This document shows, one piece after another, positions 7,128-44,908 of a stretch of DNA of 52,642 bases. The notes under the pieces are model-generated. The model was given only the letters and a program-made list of their open reading frames with translations, made no database searches and was not told where the DNA came from. The translations under genes were made by a program, and so were the position numbers. Within the stretch, counting starts at the first letter, position 1. The number at the start of each line of letters is the position of its first letter. The stretch is from contig JBBIQV010000018.1 of assembly GCA_037442105.1 (NCBI GenBank), positions 1 to 52,642 on the forward strand, read 5' to 3'. The DNA is from Nitrospiraceae bacterium. GTDB lineage: Bacteria > Nitrospirota > Nitrospiria > Nitrospirales > Nitrospiraceae.

Positions 7128-7133
7128 AAGGAC

Positions 7134-12977: not shown

Positions 12978-13319
12978 ATGGCATCCAAGACGGTGAAGGA
13001 GTTCTTTGACCTGCTTCCCGGCAAATTGGATGTGGAGGCAGCAGAAGAATTCACGGCAGTGTATCAGTTCGATCTGAGCGAGCCTCAGGGAGGGCAGTAC
13101 TATGTGCAGATTCAGGATGGCGCCTGTCGGGTCCAACAGGGCACGCATCCCGAGCCGCACGTAATCCTGTCGATGTCGGGGGAAGACTGTCTCGGGGTGC
13201 TCACAGGGCGGTTGCCGGGGGCGTCAATCGCCATGTCCGGGCGACTGCGGATCAGCGGCGATATCGGGTTGGCCCTGCAGTTGCAGGCTCTCTTTCCGGT
13301 ACTGCGCTCGCTCTATTAA
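12978..13319 (+). CDS. SCP2 sterol/lipid-binding domain protein
   Basis: AVYQFDLSEPQGGQYYV.I.DG.C.V..G...P...A.SGRLRISGDIGLA. Confidence 0.85.
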   Translation: MASKTVKEFFDLLPGKLDVEAAEEFTAVYQFDLSEPQGGQYYVQIQDGACRVQQGTHPEPHVILSMSGEDCLGVLTGRLPGASIAMSGRLRISGDIGLALQLQALFPVLRSLY

Positions 13320-16300: not shown

Positions 16301-16477
16301 GATGTCGAGGGGCGGGGCGCCCTTATAGATGACGCCGACAAAGGCGACCGGCACTTGAATTTGCGGGAAGAGATCGACCGGCAGGCGCTGCAGCGAGGTG
16401 ACTCCCAGGACCACCATGGCCAGGGAGAGCATGAGGATGCCGATGCGATTGCGCAGGGCCAGGAGCGTCAGCCACAT
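13316..16477 (-). CDS. RND efflux permease (AcrB/AcrD/AcrF family)
   Basis: 1053 aa; LPVDLFP, LNVFTLGGLALGIGRLVDDSIVELENI, RLRPILMTSLAT. Confidence 0.95.
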   Translation of the reverse strand: MWLTLLALRNRIGILMLSLAMVVLGVTSLQRLPVDLFPQIQVPVAFVGVIYKGAPPLDIEQSVVYPIEKAVSSASNVEHVESFSKQGIGAVQIWFNWGADINVGQMEVMQRITQILNSLPPGILQPFIVKFDVSNIPVAFVTVSGGDLDERALYDLAFNTIAPQIEQIANVAAATVEGGKIRQINVNLDPALLQARGLSILDVVKSVKASNLILPSGDIKAGNLDYNVFTNNQFKTVEPIADVIVKLNQQGNPVRVRDLGTVTDSSDIQTNIVRTDSQRSVYLRVNKQPIANTVEVVDALRKALPKMIGIPPGVQLGISFDQSLYIRQSIQNLVEQALHGSLLAAAVILIFLRNLTSTLIISVAIPLSILVTFIVLYFTGQTLNVFTLGGLALGIGRLVDDSIVELENIQRHLNKEANRWEAILNAAREVAMPIFASTVTTVVVFLPIFFVVGIARLLLIPLTLTIAIALFTSFFVSRTVTPALCYKFLKPEREAHRSMPRWFVRVMDWSRARYEALDQGYEQSLRWALAHRRLLIAAIVGIFLSSLALFPLIGTEFLPVSDESQFRIVLRAPVGQRVEKTEQQVAEVERVLRENIPPYEIETIVSSTGVLAQGRSSLFNPNTGPHTSVIQVYLRPPDQRTRNQIQIMNDVRPTILKLFPGVAMFFDPGGLVKRVTSFGSQKAVDVEIYGYDFEKAREVIRQVEAIMHQTTGIADIEVSREENYPEVNVVVDREKAALLGISETDVANAVLFSLNGNGQTDPIIFTDPQNGNEYYISAWLAEEHRKDLTDLENILLTTKTGEPVLLKNVASLKLGAGPVKIDRKYFQRVIHITANPVNRDLGSIASDLESAFANLQLPPGFSIRLAGQIQQQRETFEGLLFASILALVLVYMVMAAQFKSLVDPFIIMFSVPMGFPGVIVILFLTGTTLSTTSLMGIIMMLGIVVSNGVLLVDYTNVLRRRGAALRDAVIVAARTRLRPILMTSLATVLGLLPMAIGFGTGGETNAPLARAVVGGLSVSTVLTLFLVPTVYLLLEEKFPRKFDPNLQEMQAPG

Positions 16478-16490
16478 AACTTGAAAAGCG

Positions 16491-16581
16491 GTGATGAGTG
16501 ACGAGTGATGAGTGATCGGTTATGTGACGATGGCCGCCTCTCCAATCCCCAACCCATCACTCATCACCCATCACGCATCAC
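16491..16581. repeat. Heptamer-repeat inverted array (GTGATGR type) overlapping the MFP stop
   Basis: GTGATGA GTGACGA GTGATGA GTGATCG ... CCATCAC TCATCAC CCATCAC GCATCAC. Confidence 0.85.
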
Positions 16582-17754
16582 CGCATTCAGCGGTTGGATC
16601 TGCACGGGCGTGCCTTCATGGACCAGATCTTTGCCGGACACGATGACCTGCTCGTCTCCCGCAAGTCCCTTCGTGACTTCGATCCGGTTCTCGACGCGGC
16701 TGCCCACTTCGACCGGGACTTGGTGTGCCTTACCGTCGCGCACGACATACACGTATTGCAGGTCTTCCAACCGGCTCAGGGCATCGAGCGGAACCTGGAT
16801 GGCATTGGGATGTTTGGCTACGAGGACTTCCACCCGCGCGAACATACCCCCCTTCAGGAAGTGGTCCGGGTTGGGCAGGTCAACCTCCACCGTCATGGTG
16901 CGCGTGGCGCGATTCAGGGCTTGGACGACGCGGGTCACCTGGCCGTCAAACACACGGTCGGGATAGGCCTCGGCTCGGATTTCCGCTCGCTGCCCGATCT
17001 TCACCAGCGGCACGTCTTTTTCGACCACTTCGATGAGCGTACGCACGGTTTCAATGTCGTGCAAGCTGAGGATGCCCCGTGAGAACGTAGAAGTGCTGGC
17101 GGTCGCCCCGCTGACATAGGCGCCGGGGTCCAGGTTTCGTTCGGCGATATAGCCGGCGAACGGAGCGCGAATGTACGAGTAGGCCAGATTGGTCTCAGCC
17201 TGGGCCAGCGCCACCTCCATCTGCTTCACCTGGGCGTGCAACGAGTCCCACTGCGCGGTGGCGGCGTCGTAGTTGACCTGGGCATTGTCGAGGTCTTGCT
17301 GCGAGACGAACTGGTCCTTAATCAGCGCCTGCATGCGATCCAGCGTCAGCTTGGCGTTCCGGACGTTCGCATCTTGCTGGGCGACCTTCGCGCGCGCTGC
17401 GGCCAGGTTGGCCTTCGCCTGGTTGACCGCGTGGACGTAGTCGGTATGGTCGATCTCGACGAGCAGTTGGTTGGCCGCTGCCCAGTCGCCCTTGTCCACG
17501 TGGAGCTTGGAGATGTAGCCATCGACGCGGGAAAACAGAGTGACCTGCTGGTTGGGGGTGATGTCGGCTGTGTAAGCGAGCCGGACATCGAGGTCCTGGC
17601 GGAGCGGTGCCATCGTCCCCACGGTGATGATCCGCCCTTTGCGTCCATCGTTCTTGGCCCCGTTGCTCGATAGGCGGAACATGACGAGCGCTACCACGGC
17701 GAAGAAAATGATCACGCCGAGGACGACAATGGGATGACGAGTCACGCTGCTCAT
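16564..17754 (-). CDS. RND periplasmic adaptor (membrane fusion protein)
   Basis: N-terminal TM, SRVDGYI...VDKGD, coiled coil, IRAPFAGYI, LKGGMFARV. Confidence 0.95.
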   Translation of the reverse strand: MSSVTRHPIVVLGVIIFFAVVALVMFRLSSNGAKNDGRKGRIITVGTMAPLRQDLDVRLAYTADITPNQQVTLFSRVDGYISKLHVDKGDWAAANQLLVEIDHTDYVHAVNQAKANLAAARAKVAQQDANVRNAKLTLDRMQALIKDQFVSQQDLDNAQVNYDAATAQWDSLHAQVKQMEVALAQAETNLAYSYIRAPFAGYIAERNLDPGAYVSGATASTSTFSRGILSLHDIETVRTLIEVVEKDVPLVKIGQRAEIRAEAYPDRVFDGQVTRVVQALNRATRTMTVEVDLPNPDHFLKGGMFARVEVLVAKHPNAIQVPLDALSRLEDLQYVYVVRDGKAHQVPVEVGSRVENRIEVTKGLAGDEQVIVSGKDLVHEGTPVQIQPLNAVMRDG

Positions 17755-17809
17755 GGCAATGATTTGCTGCCCCTAGCGCGCATTATTCATGACGGTTCGT
17801 CGCGAAATC

Positions 17810-17887
17810 AGCGAATAGCCAGTAGCGCATAGCTCAAGAGGGCTTCCTTGTCGCCGGCTGTTCGCTGCTCGCTGTTCGCTACTAGCT
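17810..17887. repeat. Heptamer-repeat inverted array (AGCNNNY type)
   Basis: AGCGAAT AGCCAGT AGCGCAT AGCTCAA ... GTTCGCT GCTCGCT GTTCGCT ACTAGCT. Confidence 0.8.
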
Positions 17888-17917
17888 GCTCATTTTGGGC
17901 GATTGCAGCAGAAGTGC

Positions 17918-18562
17918 TCATGAATCATGCGCGCTTGTGCGCGGCGACTGAGTTGCTCGCAGGCCGCCGAGAAACAAGCTGACGTATTCTGTGACGGTGT
18001 CGGCATGATTTCGGTGCATCGGCAAGCCGAAAATGTCGTGCAGCAGCCGGTGGTGGACAATGACGCCGAAGAACGCTCTGGCCGCCAGCAATGGGTCCAC
18101 GACGCGGAAGGCGCCATCCTCGATGCGCCGGCTGATATAGCCGGCAAGCAGGTCATAGAAGATACGGTACTGCCGCCGGAAAAACATGTCGGACATTTCG
18201 TGCCCTTCCAGCGCGCTGAACAGCAGCAGGCGGAGCAGGGTGGGATCGGCGCCCTTGCGGATGCGATAGCTGGCGAGCAGGGTGAACAGCCGCTCGTCGT
18301 CCCTTTTCTTCGCCGCTTCTTCGACGGCCTCAAGCAGCTCCGAGAACTGCGCCTTCTCCGCCAGGATCGCGCTGTACAACGCTCGCTTGGTCGGAAAGTG
18401 TTTGAACAGCAGTGCCTCGCTGACGCCGGCGGTCTTGGCGATCTCTTTCGTCGTCGTTCCGCTGAAACCTTTGGCGGCGAACAGCGAAGCAGCGGTAGCG
18501 ATGATGCTCGCCTGCCGCTCGTGAGCTGACGTGCGATTGCCGTTCGATTTCTTGGTCTTCAT
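17918..18562 (-). CDS. TetR/AcrR family regulator
   Basis: LFAAKGFSGTTTKEIAKTAGVSEALLFKHFPTKRALY. Confidence 0.95.
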   Translation of the reverse strand: MKTKKSNGNRTSAHERQASIIATAASLFAAKGFSGTTTKEIAKTAGVSEALLFKHFPTKRALYSAILAEKAQFSELLEAVEEAAKKRDDERLFTLLASYRIRKGADPTLLRLLLFSALEGHEMSDMFFRRQYRIFYDLLAGYISRRIEDGAFRVVDPLLAARAFFGVIVHHRLLHDIFGLPMHRNHADTVTEYVSLFLGGLRATQSPRTSAHDS

Positions 18563-18812: not shown

Positions 18813-20492
18813 TTACTGCCGGATCTTGGCCCAGGCTTTCTGGTATTCCTCGAAAGAGTCGACTTCCATCCAGCCCTTGAAGATCGGCACGCAATTTACG
18901 TGGTGGCCTCGGTCGATCAATTCCTGGACCATATCGGTGAAGGACGCCTTGAGGATGCCGCCGGACTCGTGGAAGCCTTGCGTCTTGAATTTCTCCAGCG
19001 AGGCCTTGTAGCAGTCCGTCAGGGCCTTGATTCCCTTCTCGGAAAACATGGCCATGCCGATAAATTCGCCGTGGGCCTGTTCGTAGGGGAGGTGCCGGCC
19101 GATTTTGAGGATGCGATTCTCCTGCTCCGGCATCACGAAACGCGAGAGGTAGCTTCTTCCGGGCGGCTCTTGCAGCGTGACCAGGTCGGGGTTGATCGCG
19201 GCGGCGTGCCCCTGCTGGTGCTGCTGGTCATACCAGGCGAGATCGACGACCATCGCGATGTCTGCCGGACTCTTGAGCAGTTTTTCGAGCACCGCAGTCT
19301 CGAAGATGATGTCGCCGTACAGCATGATCGTCCGGCCCCTCATCTCGTTCTCCGCGCAGAAGAGCGAGTGCAGTTCGCCGGTCTCTTCGTACCGGTCGTT
19401 GTCGTAGTAGCGGATGTTGGGAAGGGCGATCGCCTCCTTCTTATACCCGCGCACGAGGGCGATGTCCTTGATGTTGCATTCGTTGAGGGCGGCGACTTGC
19501 CGTTCCAGGATGGTCTTGCCCTTGATGTCCAGTAAACACTTGGGCTTGTCTTCGATCAGCGGCAACAGTTGTTTCTCGAATCCTGCTGCCGCAATGATCG
19601 CCGTGATCTTCTCGCCGCCCACCGGCAGGAAACGTTTCTCGTCTTCCTCCATCTGCGGCACGCCGACGACCTCATACACTTCCTTGAGCTTGACGATCTG
19701 ATCGTTCACCGAGCCCGGCCTCGTGTCCTTTTTGATGACGGCCAAGGCGTCGCGCATGGCCCGGATGCTGGCGCGCACCATCTGATTGGCATAGATCACG
19801 ATCTTGAAGCCGGCGTCCTCCAATTCCGCCGCCGTTACTCCGTCGAAGATCGTGGGGACGACGACCAAGGGCACGCGGCCGGACCAGGCTTTGGCCACGG
19901 TTTTCAATTCATCGAATGTCGGGGATTTCGAGTGGATCAGCACGGCATCCGCACCGGCTTCCGCATAGGCCTCCGCGCGCTTGAGCGCCTCCTCTTGACC
20001 CCAGCCCGCAATCAAGGCTTCCGTTCTGGCGATGACGGCGAAATCGGTAATGGTCTGCGCCGCCTTCGCGGCCTTGATCTTCCCGCAATGTTCTTCGATG
20101 GGGATCAACTCGCGGCGGACACCCGCATAGAAGCTGCAACGCTTCGGGTACACATTGTCTTCGATGCAGATGGCGGCCACGCCGGCTCGTTCCCGGTCGT
20201 TGACGGTGCGCATGACGTTCAGCGCGTTGCCATAACCGGTGTCGCAATCGGCGATGATGGGGATCGTGATCGCCTCGGCCATCCGGCGCTCGACGCCCAA
20301 CTGTTCGCTGGAGTCGATGAAGCTCGCGTCGGGAATGCACTTGAGTGAAGCGGAAATCGCAAACCCGCTGGCCCAGATTGCGTCGAAGCCGGCGAGCTGG
20401 ATGAGTTTCGCGCTCAACGCGTCATGGGCACCGACGGCCTTAATGATGCCGGGGCGGCGGAGCAGTTCGCGTAACTTGGTGGCTGCATGCAT
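18813..20492 (-). CDS. pepM: Phosphoenolpyruvate mutase-like enzyme fused to a C-terminal nucleotidyltransferase-like domain
   Basis: GAHDALSA, WASGF, DCDTGYGN, IEDNVYPKRCSF, ARTEALIAG, GADAVLIHS, VVVPT, VIYANQ; then AIIAAAG...DKPKCLL...GYKKE...YGDIIFE...W.EVDS. Context of decarboxylase and AEP transaminase genes. Catalytic motif is non-canonical. Confidence 0.8.
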   Translation of the reverse strand: MHAATKLRELLRRPGIIKAVGAHDALSAKLIQLAGFDAIWASGFAISASLKCIPDASFIDSSEQLGVERRMAEAITIPIIADCDTGYGNALNVMRTVNDRERAGVAAICIEDNVYPKRCSFYAGVRRELIPIEEHCGKIKAAKAAQTITDFAVIARTEALIAGWGQEEALKRAEAYAEAGADAVLIHSKSPTFDELKTVAKAWSGRVPLVVVPTIFDGVTAAELEDAGFKIVIYANQMVRASIRAMRDALAVIKKDTRPGSVNDQIVKLKEVYEVVGVPQMEEDEKRFLPVGGEKITAIIAAAGFEKQLLPLIEDKPKCLLDIKGKTILERQVAALNECNIKDIALVRGYKKEAIALPNIRYYDNDRYEETGELHSLFCAENEMRGRTIMLYGDIIFETAVLEKLLKSPADIAMVVDLAWYDQQHQQGHAAAINPDLVTLQEPPGRSYLSRFVMPEQENRILKIGRHLPYEQAHGEFIGMAMFSEKGIKALTDCYKASLEKFKTQGFHESGGILKASFTDMVQELIDRGHHVNCVPIFKGWMEVDSFEEYQKAWAKIRQ

Positions 20493-20573
20493 GGCATGCG
20501 CATCATGCGAAAGCCGCCGCGCGCTTGTCAACGAAAAGTTTCTCGTTCTCGTCACGCGGAGATGGCGAGCCGC

Positions 20574-21107
20574 TCAGTACACGGTATCGGAGGCGCCTTC
20601 ATTGAATTTGGGGGAGAGTGTCTGACTTTCGAAGAAAATGATGCCTTGGTCCGTCCGAGCCTCGTAGCGCAGGTTGATTTCGGTCTCGGTCCCTCGCCAG
20701 TTAAAAAACTTCACCGCTCCACCGGCAATTTGGCCGGGCGTCTTGTCCAGCGGTCCATATTTGGTTTGGAAATAGTCGATGATCTGCTTGTGGGTGTCCG
20801 TGCCGTGATAGCGAATCGTGACCCTGCCGAACTGCCCATCGACGGTGAGGAACCGCATGGAGTCCACCTTCGCGGAACCAAGCGGAGGCGGTCCCTGTTT
20901 GAGTTCGTATCCCTTCACGCGAGGGCTGTCTTCCACTAGGGCGAAGTCGGCCGTCTCGGAGAAGGCCGCACCCCAAGGGATACCCTCGAAGCCTTTTGGA
21001 TCATTCTCCATCGGCGTGGCGGAGGTGAGAGATGCAGGAAGCGAGCACAGGGCACCTGCCGCAATGATGGGAAGGAGGAGGAACCGTCGTGAGGATGTCC
21101 AGTGCAT
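20574..21107 (-). CDS. Hypothetical exported protein (paralog of the neighbour)
   Basis: Signal peptide; DPKGFEGIPWGA, GQFGRVTIRY, FNWRGTETEINL. Confidence 0.8.
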   Translation of the reverse strand: MHWTSSRRFLLLPIIAAGALCSLPASLTSATPMENDPKGFEGIPWGAAFSETADFALVEDSPRVKGYELKQGPPPLGSAKVDSMRFLTVDGQFGRVTIRYHGTDTHKQIIDYFQTKYGPLDKTPGQIAGGAVKFFNWRGTETEINLRYEARTDQGIIFFESQTLSPKFNEGASDTVY

Positions 21108-21108
21108 C

Positions 21109-21621
21109 TTACTCCGCTGAGTCTGTTATGTAGTCATTGAACCGTGGCGCGAGGGTACGGCTGTTGAAGAATACGAAGCCGCGCTCGCTATACGCATCGT
21201 AGGTCAAATTGATCTCGGTGTCTGTGCCCTGCCAGTTGAATTGCTGATTCAACCCGCGCACGGTTTGGCCCGGCACCCGTTCCTGCACGCCGAAGTTGCG
21301 CTCGAGGTAGGTCAGGACCTGGTGATGGGTTTTCTCGCCGCGATACCGAATTGTGACACGCGCGAACTGCCCGTTCACCGTCGAAAACAGAATACTGTCC
21401 ATCTCCATCTCAGCGAACTGCGGCGACTTGTTCTTTAATTGATACTCGTCGATGTGTGGCCCGGCGCGCGTCACAGTCAAGTTCTGGTGGTTGACGAGCG
21501 ATGCACCCCACGGGATGTTCTGGAACCCCTTGGGATCGGCGATCATGGTCTCGGCGTCCGTCGGCAAGGCGATGGCGAGCAAAATGTAGAGGCCAATGGC
21601 GGAGGGAACAATCGTTCGCAT
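21109..21621 (-). CDS. Hypothetical exported protein (paralog of the neighbour)
   Basis: AAGGAGAGG RBS, signal peptide; DPKGFQNIPWGA, GQFARVTIRY, FNWQGTDTEINL. Confidence 0.8.
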   Translation of the reverse strand: MRTIVPSAIGLYILLAIALPTDAETMIADPKGFQNIPWGASLVNHQNLTVTRAGPHIDEYQLKNKSPQFAEMEMDSILFSTVNGQFARVTIRYRGEKTHHQVLTYLERNFGVQERVPGQTVRGLNQQFNWQGTDTEINLTYDAYSERGFVFFNSRTLAPRFNDYITDSAE

Positions 21622-21687
21622 TTTCCGCCTCTCCTTGTGCCTGCACGGTAACATGGCCGCCGCATCGAGGCAACTGCCGTCCTTTTG

Positions 21688-21716
21688 TTGAGAATGCTCT
21701 GGTGCTTGGCTATAAT
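21688..21716 (+). promoter_or_regulatory. Sigma70 promoter of the decarboxylase-to-flippase operon
   Basis: TTGAGA-N17-TATAAT. Confidence 0.75.
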
Positions 21717-21738
21717 GCGCTTCGCTTTTTCCGACGAG

Positions 21739-21798
21739 AGCGAACAGCTAATAGCGAATAGCTGGGAGCTACCGGCTGTTCGTGGCTCACTGTTCGCT
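21739..21798. repeat. Heptamer-repeat inverted array in the operon 5' UTR
   Basis: AGCGAAC AGCTAAT AGCGAAT AGCTGGG AGCT ACCGGCT ... GTTCGCT. Confidence 0.75.
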
Positions 21799-21813
21799 TG
21801 GAGCTATGACTTC

Positions 21814-22311
21814 ATGATTGAAAGCGATGCGTTCGTGCAGGCGCTCCAGGACATGGGCGTCAACTTCTTCACCGGCGTCCCGGACTCCATCTTAGGCGGC
21901 ATCATCGCCGAACTGATGGAGCGACGGCTCTACACGCCTGCCGTGCGGGAGGATGAAGCGGTCGGGATGGCGGCCGGTGCCTACATGGCCGGGAAGGTGC
22001 CTGTTGTGCTCATGCAGAACTCCGGGCTCGGCACTTCGCTCAACGTCCTGATTTCTCTGAACCTGATCTATCAGCAGCCCTGTATCCTGATCGTGTCCTG
22101 GCGGGGGTTCCAAGGCAAGGATGCTCCGGAACATCTCGTGATGGGCCAGACGATGACGCAGCTTCTCGATACGATGCGGATTCCCCATCGAACGCTTTCC
22201 GAGAAGACCGCGGTCGAAGATCTCAAGTGGGTGGGCGAGACGTTTATGAAACAGCGGATTCCGGTCGCATTGTTGATCCAGAAAGGTGTCGTGAAGGGGT
22301 TGCACCCGTGA
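21814..22311 (+). CDS. Phosphonopyruvate (or sulfopyruvate) decarboxylase, alpha subunit
   Basis: FFTGVPDS, REDEAVGMAAG, MQNSGLG, WRG...DAPEH..MG. Confidence 0.9.
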   Translation: MIESDAFVQALQDMGVNFFTGVPDSILGGIIAELMERRLYTPAVREDEAVGMAAGAYMAGKVPVVLMQNSGLGTSLNVLISLNLIYQQPCILIVSWRGFQGKDAPEHLVMGQTMTQLLDTMRIPHRTLSEKTAVEDLKWVGETFMKQRIPVALLIQKGVVKGLHP

Positions 22312-22318
22312 CGCTGCG

Positions 22319-22378
22319 AGCCAATAGCGAACAGCGAACAGCGAATAGCTCAGAGCTACTCGCTACCCACTATCCGCT
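22319..22378. repeat. Heptamer-repeat inverted array between the decarboxylase subunits
   Basis: AGCCAAT AGCGAAC AGCGAAC AGCGAAT AGCTCAG AGCT ACTCGCT ACCCACT ATCCGCT. Confidence 0.85.
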
Positions 22379-22387
22379 GGGCAGAAT

Positions 22388-22966
22388 ATGAGACCCGAGG
22401 AAGGGACCATGCAGAGCCGGGCGCAGGCGATGGCGGCGGTGCTCCAGCTCTTGACCGATCAGCCGGTCATCATTTGCAACGGCTTTCCCTCGCGTGAAGC
22501 ATACAAGATTGCCGATCGCCCGACGCACTTCTATATGATCGGGTCGATGGGAGTGGCGGCGGCCATCGGGCTGGGGGTGGCGCTCTCGAAACCCGACAAG
22601 AAGGTGGTGGTCTTCGACGGCGACGGGAACGTCCTGATGGGGATGGGCACGTTGGCGACCGTGGGAGCGATGAAGCCCAAGAACTTCATCCATCTCGTGT
22701 TCGACAATGAAGTCTACGGCAGCACGGGCAATCAGCCGACGATCTCCAACGTGGTTCGTCTCGAACAAGTCGCCAAGGCGGCCGGGTACGTCAATGTGGA
22801 GCGGGTGCGGGAGCGCGAAGATGTGGTGTATGAGTTCAAAGACATACTCAAGAAGGACGGACCGAGCATGCTGCTCATCAAAGTCAATGAGCTGGCCGAG
22901 GATGTGGGCCGGGTGATGCTGGAGCCGCCGGAGATTACGAAACGTTTTATGAAAGCGATCGAGTAA
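22388..22966 (+). CDS. Phosphonopyruvate (or sulfopyruvate) decarboxylase, ThDP-binding beta subunit
   Basis: NGFPSRE, FYMIGSMG, DGDGNVLMG...DNEVYGSTGNQ. Confidence 0.9.
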   Translation: MRPEEGTMQSRAQAMAAVLQLLTDQPVIICNGFPSREAYKIADRPTHFYMIGSMGVAAAIGLGVALSKPDKKVVVFDGDGNVLMGMGTLATVGAMKPKNFIHLVFDNEVYGSTGNQPTISNVVRLEQVAKAAGYVNVERVREREDVVYEFKDILKKDGPSMLLIKVNELAEDVGRVMLEPPEITKRFMKAIE

Positions 22967-22967
22967 G

Positions 22968-23064
22968 GAAGGCAGGGACTGGACTGTTCCTATGCTCCCG
23001 GAGCCCGCACCTCGGAAGGTGCTCGCTCGACGGCCGCAGGGGGAACAGTCCAGTCCCTGCCTTC
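22968..23064. repeat. Structured palindromic element, copy 2: perfect 23-bp inverted arms around the conserved core
   Basis: Arms GAAGGCAGGGACTGGACTGTTCC and GGAACAGTCCAGTCCCTGCCTTC. Core 22993-23039 is homologous to 854-900. Confidence 0.9.
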
Positions 23065-23108
23065 GCGGCCTGTCCAGCATCAGAGAGTGAGAGAGTGAGG
23101 GGGGAAAG

Positions 23109-24203
23109 ATGATTCTGTTGAACCCCGGTCCGGTGAACGTGAGCGAACGGGTGCGGCAGGCGCTGTACCGGCCCGATATCTGCCACCGCGAGTCCGAGTT
23201 CGCGGAGCTGCTGCACGGGATTCAACGGAAGCTGCTGAAAGCGTTCGTCCCCGGCGCGGAGTCCGAGTATGTGGCGGTGGTCTTGGCCGGCTCCGGAACG
23301 GCGGCGGTGGAAGCTTCGATCATGTCCGCGCTGCCGCCCGGCAAGCGCATGACCGTGATCAACAACGGTGTCTATGGCGAGCGCATGGCCGCGATGATCG
23401 GGTTGCATCGTCTGGGCGTGGCGGAGATGAAACTGGAGTGGGGAACCAGGCCGGATCCGGAAAAGCTCCGGCTGACCCTGAGGCAGCATCCGGAAGTGCA
23501 TGCGGTCGCGATGGTGCATCACGAGACGACCACCGGTCTGATCAATCCGGTCAAAGAGATCGCGGAGGTAGTGGATAGCCAGAACCGCGTATTCGTTCTG
23601 GATTCCGTCAGCGGCCTGGGCGGCGAAGCGGTCGATGTGGCGGGGCCGCATATCTACATGGTGGCCGGGACGGCGGGCAAGTGTATCCAAGGATTCCCTG
23701 GCGTATCCTTCGTATTGGTCCGCAAGGGTTTCGTCGAACGAATGAAGACCTATCCCAAACGGTCGATCTACCTCCATCTCACCCATTACATCGATGATCA
23801 GGGGAACGGCACAATTCCCTTCACCCCTGCCGTGCAGCTCTGCTATGCCTTCGATGAGGCGTTGAACGAGCTGCTGGAAGAGGGAGTGGCAAATCGCCAA
23901 CTGCGTTACAGGAAAGCGGCAACGTTGATCCGCCAACGGATGAGCGCGATGGGACTGAAGGCAGTGCTGGCGCCGGAGTTGCAGTCCAACACCATCACCT
24001 CCTACTACTTGCCTGCCGGTCTGAGCTATCAGACGGTGCATGATCGGCTGAAAGAACAGGGGTACGTGATCTACGCAGGACAAGGACAACTCGAGCAGAA
24101 AATCTTTCGGGTAGCGAACATGGGGGCGCTGACCGAACCACAGATCCATGGATTTTTGCAAGCCTTTGAACAGGTCCTCGAACGTGCGGCTGTCCGGACA
24201 TGA
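23109..24203 (+). CDS. phnW: 2-aminoethylphosphonate aminotransferase (PhnW/AepZ-like, class V PLP)
   Basis: LLNPGPV, DICHRESEF, GSGTAAVE, NGVYGERM, HHETTTGLINP, AGKCIQGFPG, PFTPAVQ, GYVIYAGQG, FRVANMG. Confidence 0.9.
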   Translation: MILLNPGPVNVSERVRQALYRPDICHRESEFAELLHGIQRKLLKAFVPGAESEYVAVVLAGSGTAAVEASIMSALPPGKRMTVINNGVYGERMAAMIGLHRLGVAEMKLEWGTRPDPEKLRLTLRQHPEVHAVAMVHHETTTGLINPVKEIAEVVDSQNRVFVLDSVSGLGGEAVDVAGPHIYMVAGTAGKCIQGFPGVSFVLVRKGFVERMKTYPKRSIYLHLTHYIDDQGNGTIPFTPAVQLCYAFDEALNELLEEGVANRQLRYRKAATLIRQRMSAMGLKAVLAPELQSNTITSYYLPAGLSYQTVHDRLKEQGYVIYAGQGQLEQKIFRVANMGALTEPQIHGFLQAFEQVLERAAVRT

Positions 24204-24919
24204 AGGCCGTCATCCTTGCGGCCGGAGTGGGAAAGCGACTCTGGCCGATCACGCAACACAAGCCCAAATGCCTGATCGAGTTCGAGGGGCGCTCGTTGCT
24301 CCACCGGTACTTGGAGAGCTTGGCGAGCCTCGGAGTGAGGCGGGCGACCATCGTCGTCGGGTACAAGCAGGAGATGATTCGCGCGGCGGTGGACGGGAAT
24401 TCTTACGGGGTCTCGGTCGAGTACTTAGTGAACGATCGGTTTCACCGCGGCAGCATCTCTTCCTTATGGATCGCGCGGACATCGTTGGATGACGACGTGA
24501 TCATTATGGACGCTGATGTGCTGTTCCACCGGGAGATCCTGCGTCGCCTGGTCCACTCGTCCTCGCCTAATTGTCTCTTGATGGACGAAACGGTCAAACA
24601 ACGGGGCGAAGAGTGCATGGTGGTGGTGCAAGGCGGGCGCGTGATTGCGCTGACGAAAAAGATGCCGGCGCGGTATGATTATGCCGGAGAAGGAGTCGGG
24701 TTCCTGCGTGTCCGGCACGCGGACGCGCCGGCGGTGATCAACTCACTCAAAGGCTACGTCGATCGCGAGATTTGGGATATGGAATATGAAGACGGCTTGC
24801 TGGAATTCTTCGGTCAGGTGAAAGTGGGGCACGAGAAGATCGGCGGCCTGCCCTGGACGGAGATCGATTTTCCAGAAGACGTCGCGCGCGCGGAGCGCGA
24901 CATTCTGCCGAAACTGTAG
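24200..24919 (+). CDS. LicC/PntC-like (phosphonate) cytidylyltransferase
   Basis: AVILAAGVGKRL...KPKCL, VVGYK, DADVLF, GEGVG, YED, WTEIDFPED. Confidence 0.9.
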   Translation: MKAVILAAGVGKRLWPITQHKPKCLIEFEGRSLLHRYLESLASLGVRRATIVVGYKQEMIRAAVDGNSYGVSVEYLVNDRFHRGSISSLWIARTSLDDDVIIMDADVLFHREILRRLVHSSSPNCLLMDETVKQRGEECMVVVQGGRVIALTKKMPARYDYAGEGVGFLRVRHADAPAVINSLKGYVDREIWDMEYEDGLLEFFGQVKVGHEKIGGLPWTEIDFPEDVARAERDILPKL

Positions 24920-24933
24920 CAACGGGAGAAAAA

Positions 24934-25030
24934 CGTCATCCGTCACACGTCATCCGTCATTCGTGAGAGAAAACTCCGGGTCTTCCCATTGCCGAATTCC
25001 GATTGACGGTTGACCAATGACGATTGACGG
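24934..25030. repeat. Heptamer-repeat inverted array (CGTCANN type)
   Basis: CGTCATC CGTCACA CGTCATC CGTCATT ... ATTGACG GTTGACC AATGACG ATTGACG. Confidence 0.85.
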
Positions 25031-25039
25031 TATTTCAAG

Positions 25040-26497
25040 ATGAGCGAGAGCGTCGTACAGAAACAGACGGACCTTCAGGGCTTGAGCACGGCGATTCTGT
25101 TGCCGTCGGCCGGGTTGTTCACGGGGTGCGGCAGGGAGGGTGTGACCAGTGTCGGCCCGCTGACGAAAGTCGGCGGAGTCAGTCTCTTCCAGCGGGCGGT
25201 CTTGACCCTGCAACGAGCCGGCATCCGCCAGCTCATCGTCCTGGCAGGTCCCGAAGCCGAGGCGCTGAAGCAGGTCCTGAGGAAAGGGGCGCGCGTGACG
25301 ATCCCCGTGCGGTGGATGCCGATCCGGGAATTCCCGCTGGAAGACCAGCGTACGTGGGAGGCGTTGGCGGCAGAGGCGCAGGGCTTCTGTCTGATCACGA
25401 GCGTCAAGGCGGTGTTTTCGCGCGGCTTGATCGAGCATCTCCGTCAGACGGTTGAAGACGGCTGTGCCATTGTGGTCACCTGTCGGGGTGAGGGAGGAGC
25501 GCAACCGATGGGACGGCGCAACCCCGCCGTACAGTTAGATGGGGACCGGCTGGTTGCGTTCCACAACCAGACCGGGCACGAGGCAAGTCAGGTTGCTGCC
25601 GATCTTGTGGTCTTACCGGCCGGGATAATGGGTGCGACAAGCCGGGGTGGTGGGGGAGAAATCACAGGCTCGATGCCGATCTGGAAGTGGTTACAGCAGG
25701 CTGCCGGTGAGGGACGGGTTCGAGCGGTCTCGACAACGACAGACCCGGCACGGTGGTACGGCGATGTGCAGGATATAACCGATGTAAAGCCGGCCGAACG
25801 CCGGCTTTTTCAATCACTCAAGGGAGAGTTCGAGGGGTTCGTCGACCGCTACTTCAACCGCAAAGTCTCGCGGCTGTTCACGAAGGCGTTTCTCCTGCTC
25901 GGGTTCTCGCCGAATGCGATTACGATCGTGGCGACCGTGGTCGGCTTGCTGGCGGCGGTGGGCTTCGGCTTCGGGACCTACACGGCTGGTATCGCGGCCG
26001 CGTTGCTGTTCCAGTTGGCGGCGATCATCGATTGTTGCGATGGCGAGGTTGCGCGTCTCACCTTCACGGAATCTCCGTTCGGCGCATGGCTCGACATCGC
26101 CATGGATAACATCGTCCACATGGCTATCTTTGCCGGCATTGCCGTTGGTGCCTGTCTCCGCATAGCCGGCAGTGACGATGCCTGGATTCCGCTCGTCTTG
26201 GGTGCGGCCGCAATTCTGGGCAACGGACTATCCTTCGTGTTGGTCAACCAAGCGCAGAAGATCAAGAACGAGCGCGGATGGAAGACACCCGTGCAGGCGG
26301 CTTGGTCGGATTTTATGCTCAAGAACGTCGCCAGCCGGGACTTTTCAGTCGTGGTGTTGCTCTTTGCTCTGTTCGATAGGCTGGAGTGGTTCCTCTGGAT
26401 GGCGGCCATCGGGTCTGCGGTCTTTTCGGTGATCATGCTCTGGGTTATTCGGCCCTCCGCGGTCACCCATACGAATCCCTTGCAGGGCGGTTCGTAG
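25040..26497 (+). CDS. CDP-alcohol phosphatidyltransferase with a degenerate N-terminal nucleotidyltransferase-like domain
   Basis: PNAIT, DCCDGEVAR...SPFGAWLDIAMD signature; N-terminal PLTKVGGVSLFQRAVLTLQRAGI. Confidence 0.9.
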   Translation: MSESVVQKQTDLQGLSTAILLPSAGLFTGCGREGVTSVGPLTKVGGVSLFQRAVLTLQRAGIRQLIVLAGPEAEALKQVLRKGARVTIPVRWMPIREFPLEDQRTWEALAAEAQGFCLITSVKAVFSRGLIEHLRQTVEDGCAIVVTCRGEGGAQPMGRRNPAVQLDGDRLVAFHNQTGHEASQVAADLVVLPAGIMGATSRGGGGEITGSMPIWKWLQQAAGEGRVRAVSTTTDPARWYGDVQDITDVKPAERRLFQSLKGEFEGFVDRYFNRKVSRLFTKAFLLLGFSPNAITIVATVVGLLAAVGFGFGTYTAGIAAALLFQLAAIIDCCDGEVARLTFTESPFGAWLDIAMDNIVHMAIFAGIAVGACLRIAGSDDAWIPLVLGAAAILGNGLSFVLVNQAQKIKNERGWKTPVQAAWSDFMLKNVASRDFSVVVLLFALFDRLEWFLWMAAIGSAVFSVIMLWVIRPSAVTHTNPLQGGS

Positions 26498-26503
26498 ATC
26501 AGC

Positions 26504-27505
26504 GTGCTCAGACTCTTCCTACTCCTCCTCGGTTTCCTCGCTCTTCTTCTCCTCGTTTGGCATATCGGTCCAGGGAGCATCTACGACGCCGCGGCGCAGC
26601 TTGGGCCGCTCGCGCTCCTCATCATTCTGATTCCTTCCGTCATGATGTATACCATCGAGGCCTACGGCTGGAAGGTCACGTTGGGGCCATCGGCGAAGGC
26701 GATTCCATTTTGGCGCTTGCTGGCGATCCGGACCGCCGGCGAAGTGGTGAACATGACGACGCCGACTGCGTATATGGGCGGGGAACCGCTGAAGGCCTAT
26801 CTGCTCAAGAAGCACAATGTCCCGATGGTGGAGGGGTTGGCCTCGGTCGTGATCGCGAAAACGACCATGACGATTGCCGAAGTCTTGTTCATTCTGCTCG
26901 GCATCGCGCTCGGATTTTGGGTGCTCGGCGCCAACGGTTCGTCCGGTCAAACCGCCGTGGCGGCCTTGTTGAGCGTCGGCCTTCTGCTGTTCGGGACGAT
27001 GGCCTTTGTGTTTGTGCAGCGGCGAGGCTTGTTCACATGGCTGCTCGAAGTGCTGCGCAAAATAGGAATCAAGATCGCCTACCTCGAATCCCGGGAGGAG
27101 AAACTCCGGTCGCTGGACCACACAATCTTGAATTTCTACACACACAACCGGCCGGCCTTCTATTCGTCCACCGGCCTGTTCTTCTTAGGTTGGTTGGCTG
27201 AAGCGCTGGAGGTGTACGTCATTATTCATTATCTCGGTGGACCGGCGAACGCTCTGTCCGCCATTTCCGTCGGGGCCCTCTCCGTCTTCATCAAAGGTGG
27301 AACGTTCTTCATTCCCGGCAGCCTCGGTGCCCAGGATGGCGGGAACCTCTTGCTGCTCACCACATTCGGCTACAGCGAGGTAACGGGGATTACGTTTGCG
27401 TTGCTGCGGCGGTTCCGCGAATTAGTCTGGATCGGGCTGGGGCTGCTGTGCCTGGTCTGTATCGGTGGACGCTCGGCGGCGGTCCAGGAAAATCAGGCAA
27501 GGTAG
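26504..27505 (+). CDS. Lysylphosphatidylglycerol-synthase TM / flippase-like membrane protein
   Basis: NMTTPTAYMGGEPLK, FIPGSLGAQDGG, ALLRRFRE; about 8 TM helices. Confidence 0.85.
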   Translation: MLRLFLLLLGFLALLLLVWHIGPGSIYDAAAQLGPLALLIILIPSVMMYTIEAYGWKVTLGPSAKAIPFWRLLAIRTAGEVVNMTTPTAYMGGEPLKAYLLKKHNVPMVEGLASVVIAKTTMTIAEVLFILLGIALGFWVLGANGSSGQTAVAALLSVGLLLFGTMAFVFVQRRGLFTWLLEVLRKIGIKIAYLESREEKLRSLDHTILNFYTHNRPAFYSSTGLFFLGWLAEALEVYVIIHYLGGPANALSAISVGALSVFIKGGTFFIPGSLGAQDGGNLLLLTTFGYSEVTGITFALLRRFRELVWIGLGLLCLVCIGGRSAAVQENQAR

Positions 27506-28563: not shown

Positions 28564-29144
28564 CGAATGACCCCTTCTTCTGTATGTTCTGTACGCAACG
28601 CAATCCCCCTCACGGTGTTTTTTCATAGGCGTGTGTTTTTGTAAAGAGCGGCGACCGCTTACCTGTTTCCATTCGCGTTGACTTGGTCGCGTGGCCGGAA
28701 CTGCCTTGCCTGTCGTTCAAACAACTACATGAAATTCATCCTTAATACTACCTCCCTTGGTGGATTGTACTGGTTGATGCCGGATGCTAGCGTTTGCATC
28801 AGAATGGGTGAGGTTGTGCATCAATGTTGCCGGGGGGAGATCAGGAGGATTTTATGAATCGGTTGGGTTTACGTTGCGGCAGGCCATTTGAATTGGAGAA
28901 TGCCTATCTATCTATCTATCTATCGTCTTCCAACTCGCTCGCGTCGTTTCTGTAGTGTAGCCGGAACTGAAGCGATGTCCGATACCCAACAGCCATTCAG
29001 ATACCCGGACGCGCGTGCCAAGCCGGCAGAAGGAGACCGCGCTCCACCTTTTGTCAAGTTCAACATGGGTAGGAAATGAACGATCTCAACTGAGTTCCCT
29101 TTCTGTGGCCGACGGAGGAGGGAAAGGTGGAGAAGGAGTTTCCC

Positions 29145-31640
29145 ATGTCCATATACTTACCATCAAATGCATCAAAGCGGCGGCTGAGGGAAGCCCAAAA
29201 CGCGCGGAATAATCGCGCGGAGATCGTCAAAGCGCTCTCTCACGGCCAGATCACGCGACGAGATCTCTTTAAGTGGGGACTGTTCACGACTGCAGGGCTT
29301 TTGCTCAACAAGAACGGGTTGAGCCCCTATGCCAAGAGCGCCTTTGCCGGCGAGCCGACGGGCGTCCCGCCGACGCCGATCGACGGCGCCTTTCCATTGA
29401 CGCAGCCGCTGCCGCGGCTCCACTTAGAAACACCGCTACCCCTGACGAAGATCGTGATGCCGAACGGCGAATGGGAAGCCCGGTGGCCGTCCGGCGTGCT
29501 GCCTAATCAGCCGCTCAACGCAAAGCGGCTTTCTTGGCACACGGACTTCAGCAATCACCCGGCGGGCAACACGCCGGCGAATCCGTACATCAACCCCATC
29601 ACGCACCGGGGGCCGATCGAAGGCCGTCCTCCCGGGGAGTGGTTCGGACACCAGCGCTGGAAAGAGTTTTTCCCTCAGGTGGGGTACCTCATGTCGCTCG
29701 GACCGTGCGCGCCGGGCACCAAGTTCCACCCGGCCTGGCCGGACCAACAAGCCAACCGAGTCTGGTCCTTCTATGAAGGAGGATTTGGAGGCGCGAGCCA
29801 CTTGCCGCCTCCACTGTTAAAAGGCCGGTATGGGGAGCCCATCCTCATGCGGATCCATAACAGTTGCCCGGTGGACCGGACCGCGAACGGCGGCTTCGGC
29901 CGCAATGAGATGTCGACGCACTTCCATAATGCCCACAATGGAGCTGAAAGCGACGGTGCCTCCAACGCCTATCACTTCCCCGGGACCTTCTACGATTACC
30001 ACTGGGGGACGACGTTGGCGCGGCACGACCAAATCAATCGGAGCGCGACGGATCGTCGGGCGTCCGGACCAGACGGCCGCGGCGGCCTGATCCAGGTGCC
30101 CGGGGATTTCCGCGAGCTGCAAGGGACCATGTGGTTCCACGACCACCGGTTCTTCTTCACTTCCGAGAACGTCTACAAGGGCATGGCGGCAATGATCAAC
30201 TATTACAGCGGGCCGGATCGCGGGAACGAGGTGCTGACCGACGGCGTGAATCTCCGTCTCCCCAGCGGCAGCCTGCTGGATTGGGGCAATCTCGATTTCG
30301 ACGTGAACCTCTTGATCGCCGATATGGCGACTGATCCAAGCGGCCAGTATTTCTTCGATATCTTCACCACCGACGGGTTCATCGGTGATCGGCTGCACGT
30401 CAACTTCGCCTGGCAGCCATACATGGAAGTGTTGCCGCGCAAATATCGCTTCCGGACCATAAACGCGTCCATGTCACGGTTCCTTCAGTTGGCCCTCGCC
30501 GATCAGAATGGGAGACCTGTCCCGTTCCAGTTCATTGCCAATGACGGCAACTTCGTGGTCCGTCCCCTCTTGCTCACCCAACTCGACCAGCAGGGCACGG
30601 CGGAGCGGTACGACATCGTCGTCGATTTCTCCAGGTTCAAAATCGGGGACAAGGTCACGCTGGTGAATCTGCTGCAGCAAACGGACGGGCGCAAGCCCGA
30701 CAAGGCCTTGTCACTGGCGCAGGCGCTCGCAAGAAATTCACCGGATACCGCCGTCGGCCCGGTCATGGAATTCCGGATCGTCGGCGCGGTCGAGAGCGTG
30801 GATGTGCCTGGCTACATCCACTACGCGAGCAGTCAGGATCTGAGTCAGGTTCCGCCGACGCTGACCGAGCAGATTCCGATCGTCGCCCCGGTCCGAACGA
30901 GGCACGTCGAGTTTGTGAGGGGCGGCGGGGACTCAACAAACACTCCCACGGGGACCTGTATCCCTGAGTGCGGCGGTCGGGAATCGTTCCCCTGGTCGAT
31001 CAAGGTGAACGGGGAGTCCGCGCACTCCCTCAACGCCAATCGCATCTCTCTGTTGATCCCGAAGCCGGGAGAAGTCGAGCATTGGACCTATCAGAACGGT
31101 GGCGGAGGCTGGGACCATCCGATCCACCTCCACTTTGAGGAAGGCATGACCATGAACCGGGGCAACGAGCCGATCCCGGCGACGGAGCGCCTGGTCCGAA
31201 AGGATATCTGGCGGCTGCGGCCGAGCGGGCGGGTCCAATTCCAGGTGCGGTTCGGGGAGTACGGCGGCGCCTATGTGAACCATTGCCATAATACCGTTCA
31301 CGAAGACTTCGCCATGTTGCTGCGATACCAGGTCCTCACGGACAGGAACAATCCGAATGATTCAGATGTGCATGTGGAGATCATTCCGACGCCGATTCCC
31401 TCCCCCGATGGCGTGACCTTTATGACCCCGGAGGTATTGGCAGAAGGGAATCCGGCCGGAAACTCGGTGTCGATCGCGCAGACGAACGGCGGGGTCGTCG
31501 GCACCGGTGGGACTGGGAGCACGTCCGGCACCACCACCACGACCGGATCTAGCGGGAGCGGGACTGGAGGAACGACCGGCACGACCACGACCAGCAGCAG
31601 CGGGAGCGGGTCTGGCAGATCCGGAAGGAGGAGGAGATAA
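29145..31640 (+). CDS. Large Tat-exported multicopper oxidase (McoA/MnxG/CotA-like)
   Basis: AAGGAG RBS, TRRDLFK Tat motif; Cu motifs THFHNAH, WFHDH, HPIHLH, HCHNTVHEDFAM; Gly/Thr/Ser tail. Confidence 0.92.
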   Translation: MSIYLPSNASKRRLREAQNARNNRAEIVKALSHGQITRRDLFKWGLFTTAGLLLNKNGLSPYAKSAFAGEPTGVPPTPIDGAFPLTQPLPRLHLETPLPLTKIVMPNGEWEARWPSGVLPNQPLNAKRLSWHTDFSNHPAGNTPANPYINPITHRGPIEGRPPGEWFGHQRWKEFFPQVGYLMSLGPCAPGTKFHPAWPDQQANRVWSFYEGGFGGASHLPPPLLKGRYGEPILMRIHNSCPVDRTANGGFGRNEMSTHFHNAHNGAESDGASNAYHFPGTFYDYHWGTTLARHDQINRSATDRRASGPDGRGGLIQVPGDFRELQGTMWFHDHRFFFTSENVYKGMAAMINYYSGPDRGNEVLTDGVNLRLPSGSLLDWGNLDFDVNLLIADMATDPSGQYFFDIFTTDGFIGDRLHVNFAWQPYMEVLPRKYRFRTINASMSRFLQLALADQNGRPVPFQFIANDGNFVVRPLLLTQLDQQGTAERYDIVVDFSRFKIGDKVTLVNLLQQTDGRKPDKALSLAQALARNSPDTAVGPVMEFRIVGAVESVDVPGYIHYASSQDLSQVPPTLTEQIPIVAPVRTRHVEFVRGGGDSTNTPTGTCIPECGGRESFPWSIKVNGESAHSLNANRISLLIPKPGEVEHWTYQNGGGGWDHPIHLHFEEGMTMNRGNEPIPATERLVRKDIWRLRPSGRVQFQVRFGEYGGAYVNHCHNTVHEDFAMLLRYQVLTDRNNPNDSDVHVEIIPTPIPSPDGVTFMTPEVLAEGNPAGNSVSIAQTNGGVVGTGGTGSTSGTTTTTGSSGSGTGGTTGTTTTSSSGSGSGRSGRRRR

Positions 31641-31726
31641 CATCAGGTGCAGAAGCTCGGAGGCCGCCTTTAGAAGGACGGTCTCCGGGCTTGGGCGGAC
31701 CGGTCGCGAGAAAGAGGGGGCGCGCC

Positions 31727-32692
31727 ATGGGCAAGACTCGATGGGGGAGTGTCGCAGTCCTCGTGATCGTCACGTGGGCGCTGCTGGGGCTGCTTGGAGA
31801 CACCATGGTCTCCGCCGCAACCTGGGGAGAGAGCTACTTCCCGAACGTGCCCCTCGTGACCCAGGAGGGGGAGACTGTCCATTTCTATGACGACCTGATC
31901 AAGGGCAAAATCGTCCTGATCAACTTCATCTACGCCGGTTGCAAAGAAGTCTGTCCCCTGGTGACGGCGAGAATGGCGCAGGTCCAAAAATCGTTAGGCG
32001 ATCGAGTCGGGCGCGACATATTTTTCTATTCAATCACGTTGGACCCGGCCCATGACACACCGGAAGTGCTCAAGAAACACGCAGCGGCCTTTCACGCAGG
32101 ACCGGGATGGCTGTTTCTGACGGGGAAGCCGGAAGACATCGAGCAGGTGCGCTACAAGCTTGGGGAGCGGAGCAACCGCTTGGCCGACCACAGGAATGAC
32201 GCGATGGCGGGCAACGGGGCAACCGGCGATTGGGAGCGCACCTCCCTGTTCCAAGACGTGGCTCTGGTCGCCAAGGTGGTGCTGGAGATGGACCCGCAGT
32301 GGCGAGCCCAGCGGGTCCGCAGGCCGGGGACGACTTCTACAAATGTCGCGCCCGTGCGTTCGGTGGGACAGACGGGACAAGCCCTCTTCGTGAAGCTCTG
32401 CGCTTCATGCCACACGATCGGGAAGGGGGACCTCGTGGGCCCTGACCTCCAGGGCGTGACGGTTCGCCGGGAACGCGCCTGGCTCTCTCAGTTCATGCAG
32501 AGGCCCGACGTGATGCGGGCGAATCAAGACCCCGTTGCCGTAGCCCTTTCCGCCAAGTATGAGGGGGTCAGGATGCCCAATCTAGGGTTGTCGGAGACCG
32601 ACGTGGGCGACCTGTTGGTCTATCTGGACAGGCAGAGCCAACGTCTGGGCGTCTCAACCAAGCCGGCGACGCCTCCACACGCCGCCCACTAG
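31727..32692 (+). CDS. SCO1/SenC copper chaperone fused to cytochrome c
   Basis: Signal peptide, FIYAGCKEVCP, SITLDPAHDTPE, WLFLTG; CASCH...GPDL...MPNL. Confidence 0.92.
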   Translation: MGKTRWGSVAVLVIVTWALLGLLGDTMVSAATWGESYFPNVPLVTQEGETVHFYDDLIKGKIVLINFIYAGCKEVCPLVTARMAQVQKSLGDRVGRDIFFYSITLDPAHDTPEVLKKHAAAFHAGPGWLFLTGKPEDIEQVRYKLGERSNRLADHRNDAMAGNGATGDWERTSLFQDVALVAKVVLEMDPQWRAQRVRRPGTTSTNVAPVRSVGQTGQALFVKLCASCHTIGKGDLVGPDLQGVTVRRERAWLSQFMQRPDVMRANQDPVAVALSAKYEGVRMPNLGLSETDVGDLLVYLDRQSQRLGVSTKPATPPHAAH

Positions 32693-44904: not shown

Positions 44905-44908
44905 TGGC

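Follow-up and report, generated by a model that had tools for sequence, protein, structure and literature searches.

The stretch of DNA analysed here, hereafter the window, comprises 52,642 nucleotides of contig JBBIQV010000018.1 from a Nitrospiraceae bacterium whose own assembly (GCA_037442105.1, our genome G000) is 87% complete. Our subject is a divergent gene cluster at 18813..27505, a candidate phosphonate pathway with an atypical phosphoenolpyruvate (PEP) mutase-like protein. A first-pass annotation had described a mutase fusion, a split decarboxylase, a PhnW-like transaminase, a cytidylyltransferase, a CDP-alcohol phosphotransferase and a flippase-like protein in divergent units; all the open reading frames (ORFs) it named are present on the strands it gave, and domain searches confirmed the gene set. 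The minus strand carries a PEP-mutase-like/nucleotidyltransferase (NTase) fusion and two paralogous genes of no named family. The plus strand carries, in order, the alpha and beta subunits of a thiamine diphosphate (ThDP) decarboxylase, a class V pyridoxal phosphate (PLP) transaminase, an NTase, an NTase-like/CDP-alcohol phosphotransferase (CDP-AP) fusion and an HpnL-like membrane protein. Every activity named below is predicted from genes, motifs, synteny and patterns of distribution and decay. The features are as follows.

18813..20492, minus strand: PEP-mutase-like domain (amino acids 1-291, loop EDNVYPKRCS) and degenerate PntC-like NTase domain, 559 amino acids
20502..20531, minus strand: sigma-70-like promoter match (TTGACA-18-CATGAT) just upstream of the mutase ATG, a consensus match only
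20574..21107, minus strand: protein of no named family with one N-terminal hydrophobic segment, 42% identical to its neighbour
21109..21654, minus strand: paralogue of the 20574..21107 protein, no Pfam family
21688..21716, plus strand: sigma-70-like promoter match (TTGAGA-17-TATAAT, 11/12) upstream of the plus-strand operon, a consensus match only
21814..22311, plus strand: ThDP decarboxylase alpha (PYR) subunit, GVPDS/DAPEH type
22388..22966, plus strand: ThDP decarboxylase beta (PP) subunit
23109..24203, plus strand: class V PLP transaminase of the 2-aminoethylphosphonate (AEP) transaminase subfamily seen in a Group 1 cluster (see below), PLP lysine K191 intact
24200..24919, plus strand: stand-alone PntC/LicC-like putative cytidylyltransferase with the PntC catalytic residues
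25040..26497, plus strand: CDP-AP with full signature, about six hydrophobic segments and a degenerate NTase-like N-domain, AF2299-like architecture
26504..27505, plus strand: LPG-synthase-TM/HpnL-like, flippase-like membrane protein

The arrangement is not a chance one: of 80 related loci fetched, 49 had 7 kb or more of upstream flank, and every one of the 49 shows the six operon genes next to the mutase in an unchanged order. The mutase start is most likely the ATG at 20492, which gives the 559 amino acids of the orthologues and has the promoter-like site at 20531-20502 upstream of it; a GTG start at 20555 was disfavoured by both the orthologue length and that site. The start of the decarboxylase alpha subunit was set at 21814. 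A promoter scan of the region found four sigma-70-like sites, against 2.9 expected by chance. The two paralogues (20574..21654, minus strand) are interposed between the divergent units and have no Pfam or named Atlas family, the Atlas clusters nearest to the 21109..21654 protein being unnamed with Nitrospirota as the commonest taxon. Both have a hydrophobic segment near the N-terminus; there are 779 homologues, and in family f2 (L163, L165, L166) one of the pair accompanies the mutase. The 20574..21107-type gene is kept in genomes that lost the mutase, and since the two paralogues persist after mutase loss they were not counted as pathway enzymes.

The fusion protein matches PEP_mutase (E 2e-56) and NTP_transf_3 (E 6e-10), and its closest solved relative by sequence is the Streptomyces PEP mutase (E 1e-81). 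The defining loop of PEP mutases, EDKxxxxxNS, is not found; the loop reads EDNVYPKRCS, and the form ED[NS]xxPKRCS recurs in 99 of 99 distinct orthologous domains. Compared with the PEP mutases of Mytilus (1PYM/1M1B) and Streptomyces (5UNC), and with model TIGR02320, the motif Lys is thus Asn and N122 is Cys, whereas the fold (TM-score 0.94-0.96), the metal-binding acids and the loop Lys are shared. D58, D85, D87, E114, R159, H190 and S123, whose catalytic roles are taken from passages of PMC7916636, are all kept, and the H187 and V212-P213-T214 columns are of PepM type, not the lyase-type Glu/Asn. With N122 replaced and the other catalytic residues kept, sequence alone leaves mutase activity open. 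The score for TIGR02320 (PEP mutase) is 279.7 bits, below the cut-off of 319.55, as is that of P0164 (280.3 bits), a protein with the canonical motif.

The Cys-loop enzyme could instead be a lyase or a hydrolase, in which case the locus would form no C-P bond. Its loop KRCS indeed resembles the lyase loop KRCGH, and it lacks N122, as does phosphonopyruvate hydrolase (PPH). The hydrolase diagnostics fail, however, for PPH/PalA: the N122 position holds Cys and not Thr, HSK stands in place of HSR (Arg188), and TIGR02321 scores 255.7 against a cut-off of 374.4 bits. PPH also forms a separate clade in the tree (support 99), with the mutase outside it. The lyase loop K[KR]CGH of PrpB, isocitrate lyase and carboxyphosphoenolpyruvate mutase is absent from the mutase, which has KRCSF; a separate KKCGH paralogue is encoded in the same genome. 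The predicted structure (pLDDT 89.6) superposes on 5UNC with a TM-score of 0.96, on PPH with 0.93 and on lyases with 0.86-0.89, so that the fold is nearer PepM than the lyases, PepM and PPH being poorly separated by this score. The lyase outgroup does attach near the Cys-loop clade, with weak support, and we do not claim a deep placement of that clade beside the lyases on such branches.

On the mutase tree the Cys loops need four changes, two of them forced. Among the best 150 clusters at 50% identity, 23 have a Cys-Ser loop, 89 a canonical one, 30 another loop and one a PPH-like loop, with seven unread; the variant is therefore not confined to the Nitrospirales clade. An EDN..RCS mutase and a decarboxylase alpha subunit are fused in one otherwise unrelated protein, P0124, whose alpha part is 43% identical to that of the window. 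Mutase-family fusions to a decarboxylase alpha or an acyl-CoA-ligase-like domain were seen in P0124, P0164, P0168, P0176 and others. Further non-canonical loops of the family include EDN..RNS, EDN..HS and ED..SS, many others being without the motif Lys.

The distribution of the two mutase types bears on what the enzyme does. A census covered the 114 genomes of the order that are at least 90% complete, with the source genome excluded. The decarboxylase beta subunit is present in all 114. For the mutase (DISPLACEMENT), 24 genomes carry the Cys-loop type, counted as 23 by pattern plus G293, whose EDS..RCS variant was missed by both patterns; 87 carry the canonical type, defined by the pattern EDKxFPKTNS and called mostly from DNA motif matches, with 19 loci read as ORFs; none carries both and three carry neither. 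The canonical pattern, a loose one, yields chance matches in controls, and matches outside the order were not counted. One canonical call, G339, was removed because its sole match was not a PepM loop, which leaves 52, not 53, in family f1. A tree of the operon proteins (59 rows) places the Cys-loop state at its root and shows eight origins of the canonical state, seven of them forced by strongly supported branches. The canonical type has thus displaced the Cys-loop mutase at least seven times. In G009, G011, G018 and G319 the syntenic slot beside the intact operon has no mutase, a canonical pepM being located elsewhere. Of the 19 canonical loci read, 14 had no phosphonopyruvate decarboxylase (Ppd) match in the stretch; two loci lie close to contig ends, and of the five that do have Ppd three had been chosen for it. 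With no Ppd beside most of the canonical pepM genes read, the decarboxylase of the operon is their likely partner. Such repeated swapping for the standard enzyme suggests that the atypical mutase does the same job.

Loss of the mutase is accompanied by decay of the genes around it. The catalytic PLP lysine of the transaminase is lost in five of five genomes in which no mutase was found (G022, G094, G272, the 76% complete G014 and the 94% complete G038, in two lineages) and kept in the 87 of 87 others. G022, G094 and G272 are also without orthologues of the NTase, the CDP-AP and an unlinked oxygenase described below. The alpha subunit of the operon is decayed in G102 and G135, two genomes whose canonical pepM has a fused Ppd next to it; invariant columns show 12 and 17 changes there, against a median of 0, and of the five genomes with a fused Ppd these are the two whose alpha subunit was read. 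A single decarboxylase match per genome had been tried as a sign that no fused Ppd is present and was rejected, because the fused Ppd of G135 and that of G102 fall below the E cut applied. Because mutual exclusion, displacement, co-decay and the P0124 fusion concur, the operon would consume the product of PEP mutase and the Cys-loop enzyme would supply it. Comparative genomics thus makes it likely that this enzyme has PEP mutase activity and converts PEP to phosphonopyruvate.

The next steps would lead to AEP, the two-subunit decarboxylase and the transaminase acting on phosphonopyruvate in turn. For the decarboxylase and TRANSAMINASE, the best PDB match of the alpha subunit is RhiE (E 6e-31), part of a split phosphonopyruvate decarboxylase that is described as characterised in a passage of a review. 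With RhiEF (PDB 9IZ3/9IZ4) the window pair shares the two-gene PYR/PP split and the alpha motif DAxEH, whereas RhiEF serves rhizocticin peptide synthesis and has GVPC where the window alpha has GVPDS. Against the Ppd model the subunits reach 130 (alpha) and 189 (beta) bits, with a cut-off of 312.5. The best model for the transaminase is PhnW-AepZ (343.7 bits against 360.8); its nearest relatives are AEP transaminases, and with the transaminase that neighbours a canonical pepM in Mycetohabitans it has 40% identity and subfamily motifs in common.

Without a C-P bond, the decarboxylase would act on sulfopyruvate, leading to taurine, or on phosphohydroxypyruvate, leading to phosphoethanolamine. 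The beta subunit indeed scores higher for ComE (199.2 bits) than for Ppd, but neither ComDE model is reached (TIGR03845, 117 against 147.95 bits; TIGR03846, 199.2 against 221.5 bits), and the alpha subunit has the RhiE-type DAxEH where the Roseobacteraceae ComD of Leisingera/Sulfitobacter has PVACQ. As a source of sulfopyruvate, ComA was found in one of five genomes tested and cysteate synthase above cut-off in none of the five, neither being found in the 87% complete source genome; the sulfopyruvate alternative is weak. For phosphoethanolamine, the source genome can already make phosphatidylethanolamine (PE) through Psd-PssA. Neither substrate would account for the way the Cys-loop enzyme and canonical PepM exclude each other, or for the lysine loss in mutase-less genomes, and a locus that forms no C-P bond is, in our judgement, very unlikely.

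Several observations nevertheless weigh against a phosphonate pathway. N122 is the residue to which, according to a passage of PMC7916636, most authors attribute the difference between mutase and hydrolase. None of the mutase, decarboxylase, transaminase and HpnL-like proteins reaches the curated cut-off of its best NCBIfam model, and the beta subunit prefers ComE. The census leans on DNA motif matches, and counts across relatives are not independent, the genomes being kin. G032, outside the set of 114, has both mutase types, its canonical copy lying in a separate cluster with an Fe-alcohol dehydrogenase. Finally, the decarboxylase genes remain open frames in mutase-less genomes, which is unexplained and would fit a decarboxylase with another substrate. 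On balance the locus is still highly probable to encode a phosphonate pathway. At L137, L138, L154 and L155 (G022, G014, G094, G272) the decarboxylase alpha/beta and transaminase frames are open at 66-79% identity; with the lysine, the mutase, the NTase and the CDP-AP gone in that clade, they may reflect slow decay or a new non-catalytic role.

The three NTase-like domains, two of them noted as degenerate at first pass, behave as described there. The stand-alone protein, predicted to form CMP-AEP, keeps GxGxR and the equivalents of R15, K25, K153 and E196 of Treponema denticola PntC in 84 of 84 orthologues. Its best PDB match is that enzyme (6PD1, E 4e-13; Rice et al. 2019, PMC6697681), and the metal-ligand acids are kept. 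Unlike PntC, it is not fused to a transaminase and has Asp at the E104 position (84/84), as in LicC, so that its sequence does not decide between AEP and a bulkier head group. The mutase-fused domain reads GFEKQL at the GxGxR site, with GF[ED]xxL and no Arg in 96 of 96 sequences; its invariant Lys and Asp residues indicate a conserved domain, not a decaying one, and the canonical mutase (Ppm) fusions examined deviate at the same site (ASxGxxL). The N-domain of the CDP-AP is NTase-like without the motif. These two domains are probably not working cytidylyltransferases.

The head group would then pass to an acceptor. The CDP-AP has the signature DxxDGxxAR...GxxxDxxxD in 73 of 73 orthologues and likely moves the head group onto diacylglycerol (DAG), the HpnL-like protein that follows probably flipping the product. 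A bacterial CDP-base:DAG transferase exists in Treponema denticola, as stated in part of PMC8590670. What counts against DAG is that the nearest structures, AF2299 and IPCT/DIPPS (4O6M, 4MND), are not DAG-specific enzymes. They share the NTase-like N-domain and a CDP-AP domain with full signature, but are distant (E 4e-16) and match mostly in the signature region, and therefore the acceptor cannot be inferred from them. With the top NCBIfam match, a bifunctional di-myo-inositol phosphate (DIP) synthase far below cut-off, they would also suit a soluble polyol or lipid-linked glycan as acceptor, giving a DIP-like solute or a surface phosphonoglycan. Passages of Rice 2019 (PMC6697681) likewise place the characterised PntCs in clusters predicted to tailor cell surfaces. 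But the conserved unit has no glycosyltransferase or polysaccharide gene, and a flippase-like gene follows the CDP-AP and is missing with it from the G022, G094 and G272 loci. We consider a solute or glycan distinctly unlikely; a lipid product is probable, and for the whole route ending in an AEP or hydroxy-AEP head group on DAG the chances appear even.

The same chemistry could instead end on an isoprenoid alcohol, bacteriohopanepolyol or another. Among NCBIfam models the membrane protein matches HpnL (TIGR03476) best, at 152.9 bits and short of the 195.65 cut-off, the flippase-like domain model TIGR00374 being above its own. The curators of the HpnL model reportedly mention AEP-lipid clusters. 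FPP synthase-like, hpnA (above the TIGR03466 cut-off) and CruF-like genes lie in a row at 5247-8445 (minus strand) of the window; hpnA and FPP synthase are 10-12 kb from the mutase here and 2-5 kb from it in family f3. A gene for a protein resembling one barrel of squalene-hopene cyclase stands between the NTase and the CDP-AP in f3 and f4 operons, as follows.

L125:17342-18328, L148:7572-8549 and L150:12064-13041: 325-amino-acid protein resembling one squalene-hopene cyclase barrel

After the Mycetohabitans cluster come dxs and hpnN, and shc is present in 149 of 151 genomes. However, shc also occurs in mutase-less genomes, so that its distribution is uninformative on the acceptor, and the squalene-cyclase-like gene was not found in the source genome. 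To our knowledge no CDP-alcohol transferase acts on a hopanoid, which counts against such an acceptor. HpnL itself has no known function according to part of PMC12324291. We regard a hopanoid or other isoprenoid acceptor as possible but unlikely, DAG being the likelier lipid. The most far-reaching proposal is unlikely: that a phosphonate-headed hopanoid, with hydroxy-AEP or AEP on bacteriohopanepolyol, is produced by nearly all Nitrospirales, its synthesis beginning with an ancient Cys-loop PEP mutase that forms a bridge between isocitrate-lyase-type lyases and canonical PEP mutases and is discarded by motif-based censuses. No report of such a lipid class was found in the literature searched. 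In some f3 genomes a second, short CDP-alcohol phosphotransferase lies between the mutase and the isoprenoid genes (L125:4099-4833, L127:14069-14830).

The closest described system is the Group 1 cluster of Li & Horsman (2022, 10.1101/2021.04.07.438883), the phosphonolipid type of Yu et al. 2013, as cited there, corresponding to the Burkholderiales_CDP-OH families. Its core of seven genes includes a 2-oxoglutarate-Fe(II) (2OG-Fe(II)) oxygenase and is predicted to yield a 1-hydroxy phosphonate; according to the parts consulted, the product was uncharacterised as of 2022. The window has the corresponding Ppm fused to a PntC-like domain, Ppd, AEP transaminase, second PntC, CDP-alcohol transferase and LPG-synthase-TM protein, each with a Mycetohabitans homologue (24-42% identity), and so shows the Group 1 composition of Ppd, AEP transaminase, two PntCs, one of them Ppm-fused, and two phospholipid-associated genes. 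Unlike in Group 1, its mutase is transcribed divergently, lacks EDKX5NS (the survey's entry criterion) and branches apart from the Mycetohabitans Ppm in the tree; its Ppd is split, its CDP-AP has an extra degenerate NTase domain, its oxygenase is unlinked and two genes of no named family are interposed.

No 2OG-Fe(II) oxygenase lies inside the window locus, and the pathway, complete-looking at first pass, is thus not complete there. A Group 1-type oxygenase is encoded on another contig, after a lolA-like gene.

G000:C2:117046-117795 (L199:9047-9796), plus strand: 2OG-Fe(II) oxygenase

It is 47% identical to the oxygenase of the Mycetohabitans Group 1-type cluster (E 7e-65), has the HxD..H triad and found no sequence match in the PDB. 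A halogenase reading was rejected: HalD/BesD matches are weak and HxD is present. The gene occurs in 64 of 67 genomes of the source genome's family, being missing exactly in the mutase-less G022, G094 and G272, and in 35 of 66 genomes of f2. With a Group 1-type oxygenase in the genome that was co-lost with the mutase, the head group is probably hydroxy-AEP, the oxygenase probably hydroxylating it. Against this, the co-loss in the family is a single event, and the oxygenase is found in only 6 of 36 genomes of genus g25, 0 of 14 of f3 and 0 of 3 of f4. We infer that hydroxylation is optional across the lineage and probable in the source genome.

The predicted route from PEP through AEP and CMP-AEP to a membrane acceptor, as first proposed, is well backed by homology, retained catalytic residues and co-loss; its first step had been called established, which does not hold for a mutase that fails the defining motif. 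The acceptor, whether DAG, a hopanoid or another, and the flippase role are matters of inference.

Elsewhere in the window, TetR, HlyD-like and AcrB-like efflux genes (13316-18562, minus strand) are syntenic downstream of the mutase in most loci of the family and are kept after pathway loss. A PemK/MazF-like toxin-antitoxin gene lies at 4390-4734 (minus strand). At 29127-32692 (plus strand) lies a gene for a large multicopper oxidase-like protein that has a Gly/Ser/Thr tail, with an SCO1-cytochrome c fusion after it, and an ordinary division and cell-wall cluster, rsmH to ddl, occupies 37738-52244 (plus strand).

As far as the parts consulted state, the surveys of Rice 2019 (PMC6697681) and Li & Horsman (10.1101/2021.04.07.438883) selected EDKX5NS proteins only. 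The survey of Acker et al., in the passage available, tolerates two missing residues if a Ppd above the trusted cut-off lies within 5 kb; with split subunits at 130 and 189 against 312.5 bits, that rule would probably still miss the window mutase. In the main texts of the open-access literature we found no Nitrospira phosphonate pathway and no EDN..RCS loop, although the Li & Horsman and Rice supplements could list a canonical pepM of Nitrospira; a passage of PMC10579370 mentions hopanoid genes and not phosphonate. The cluster is one that would work like Group 1/Burkholderiales_CDP-OH but fails its entry motif and has no in-cluster oxygenase. What sets it apart is the atypical mutase without the signature and its displacement; the significance is tempered in that the cluster type was already predicted in print and 87 of the 114 genomes use an ordinary PepM.

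To conclude, the locus offers a testable case that C-P bond formation may not need the EDKX5NS motif. With Cys-Ser loops in 23 of the best 150 clusters and many others without the motif Lys, phosphonate censuses probably undercount. Hydroxy-AEP and phosphoethanolamine are isomers (both C2H8NO4P, by arithmetic), so that a lipid with hydroxy-AEP on DAG would be isobaric with PE, indeed its exact isomer; it would be easily overlooked, which would explain why routine lipidomics had missed it. As the operon marker gene is present in all 114 Nitrospirales genomes sampled, these widespread nitrifiers are candidate phosphonate producers.

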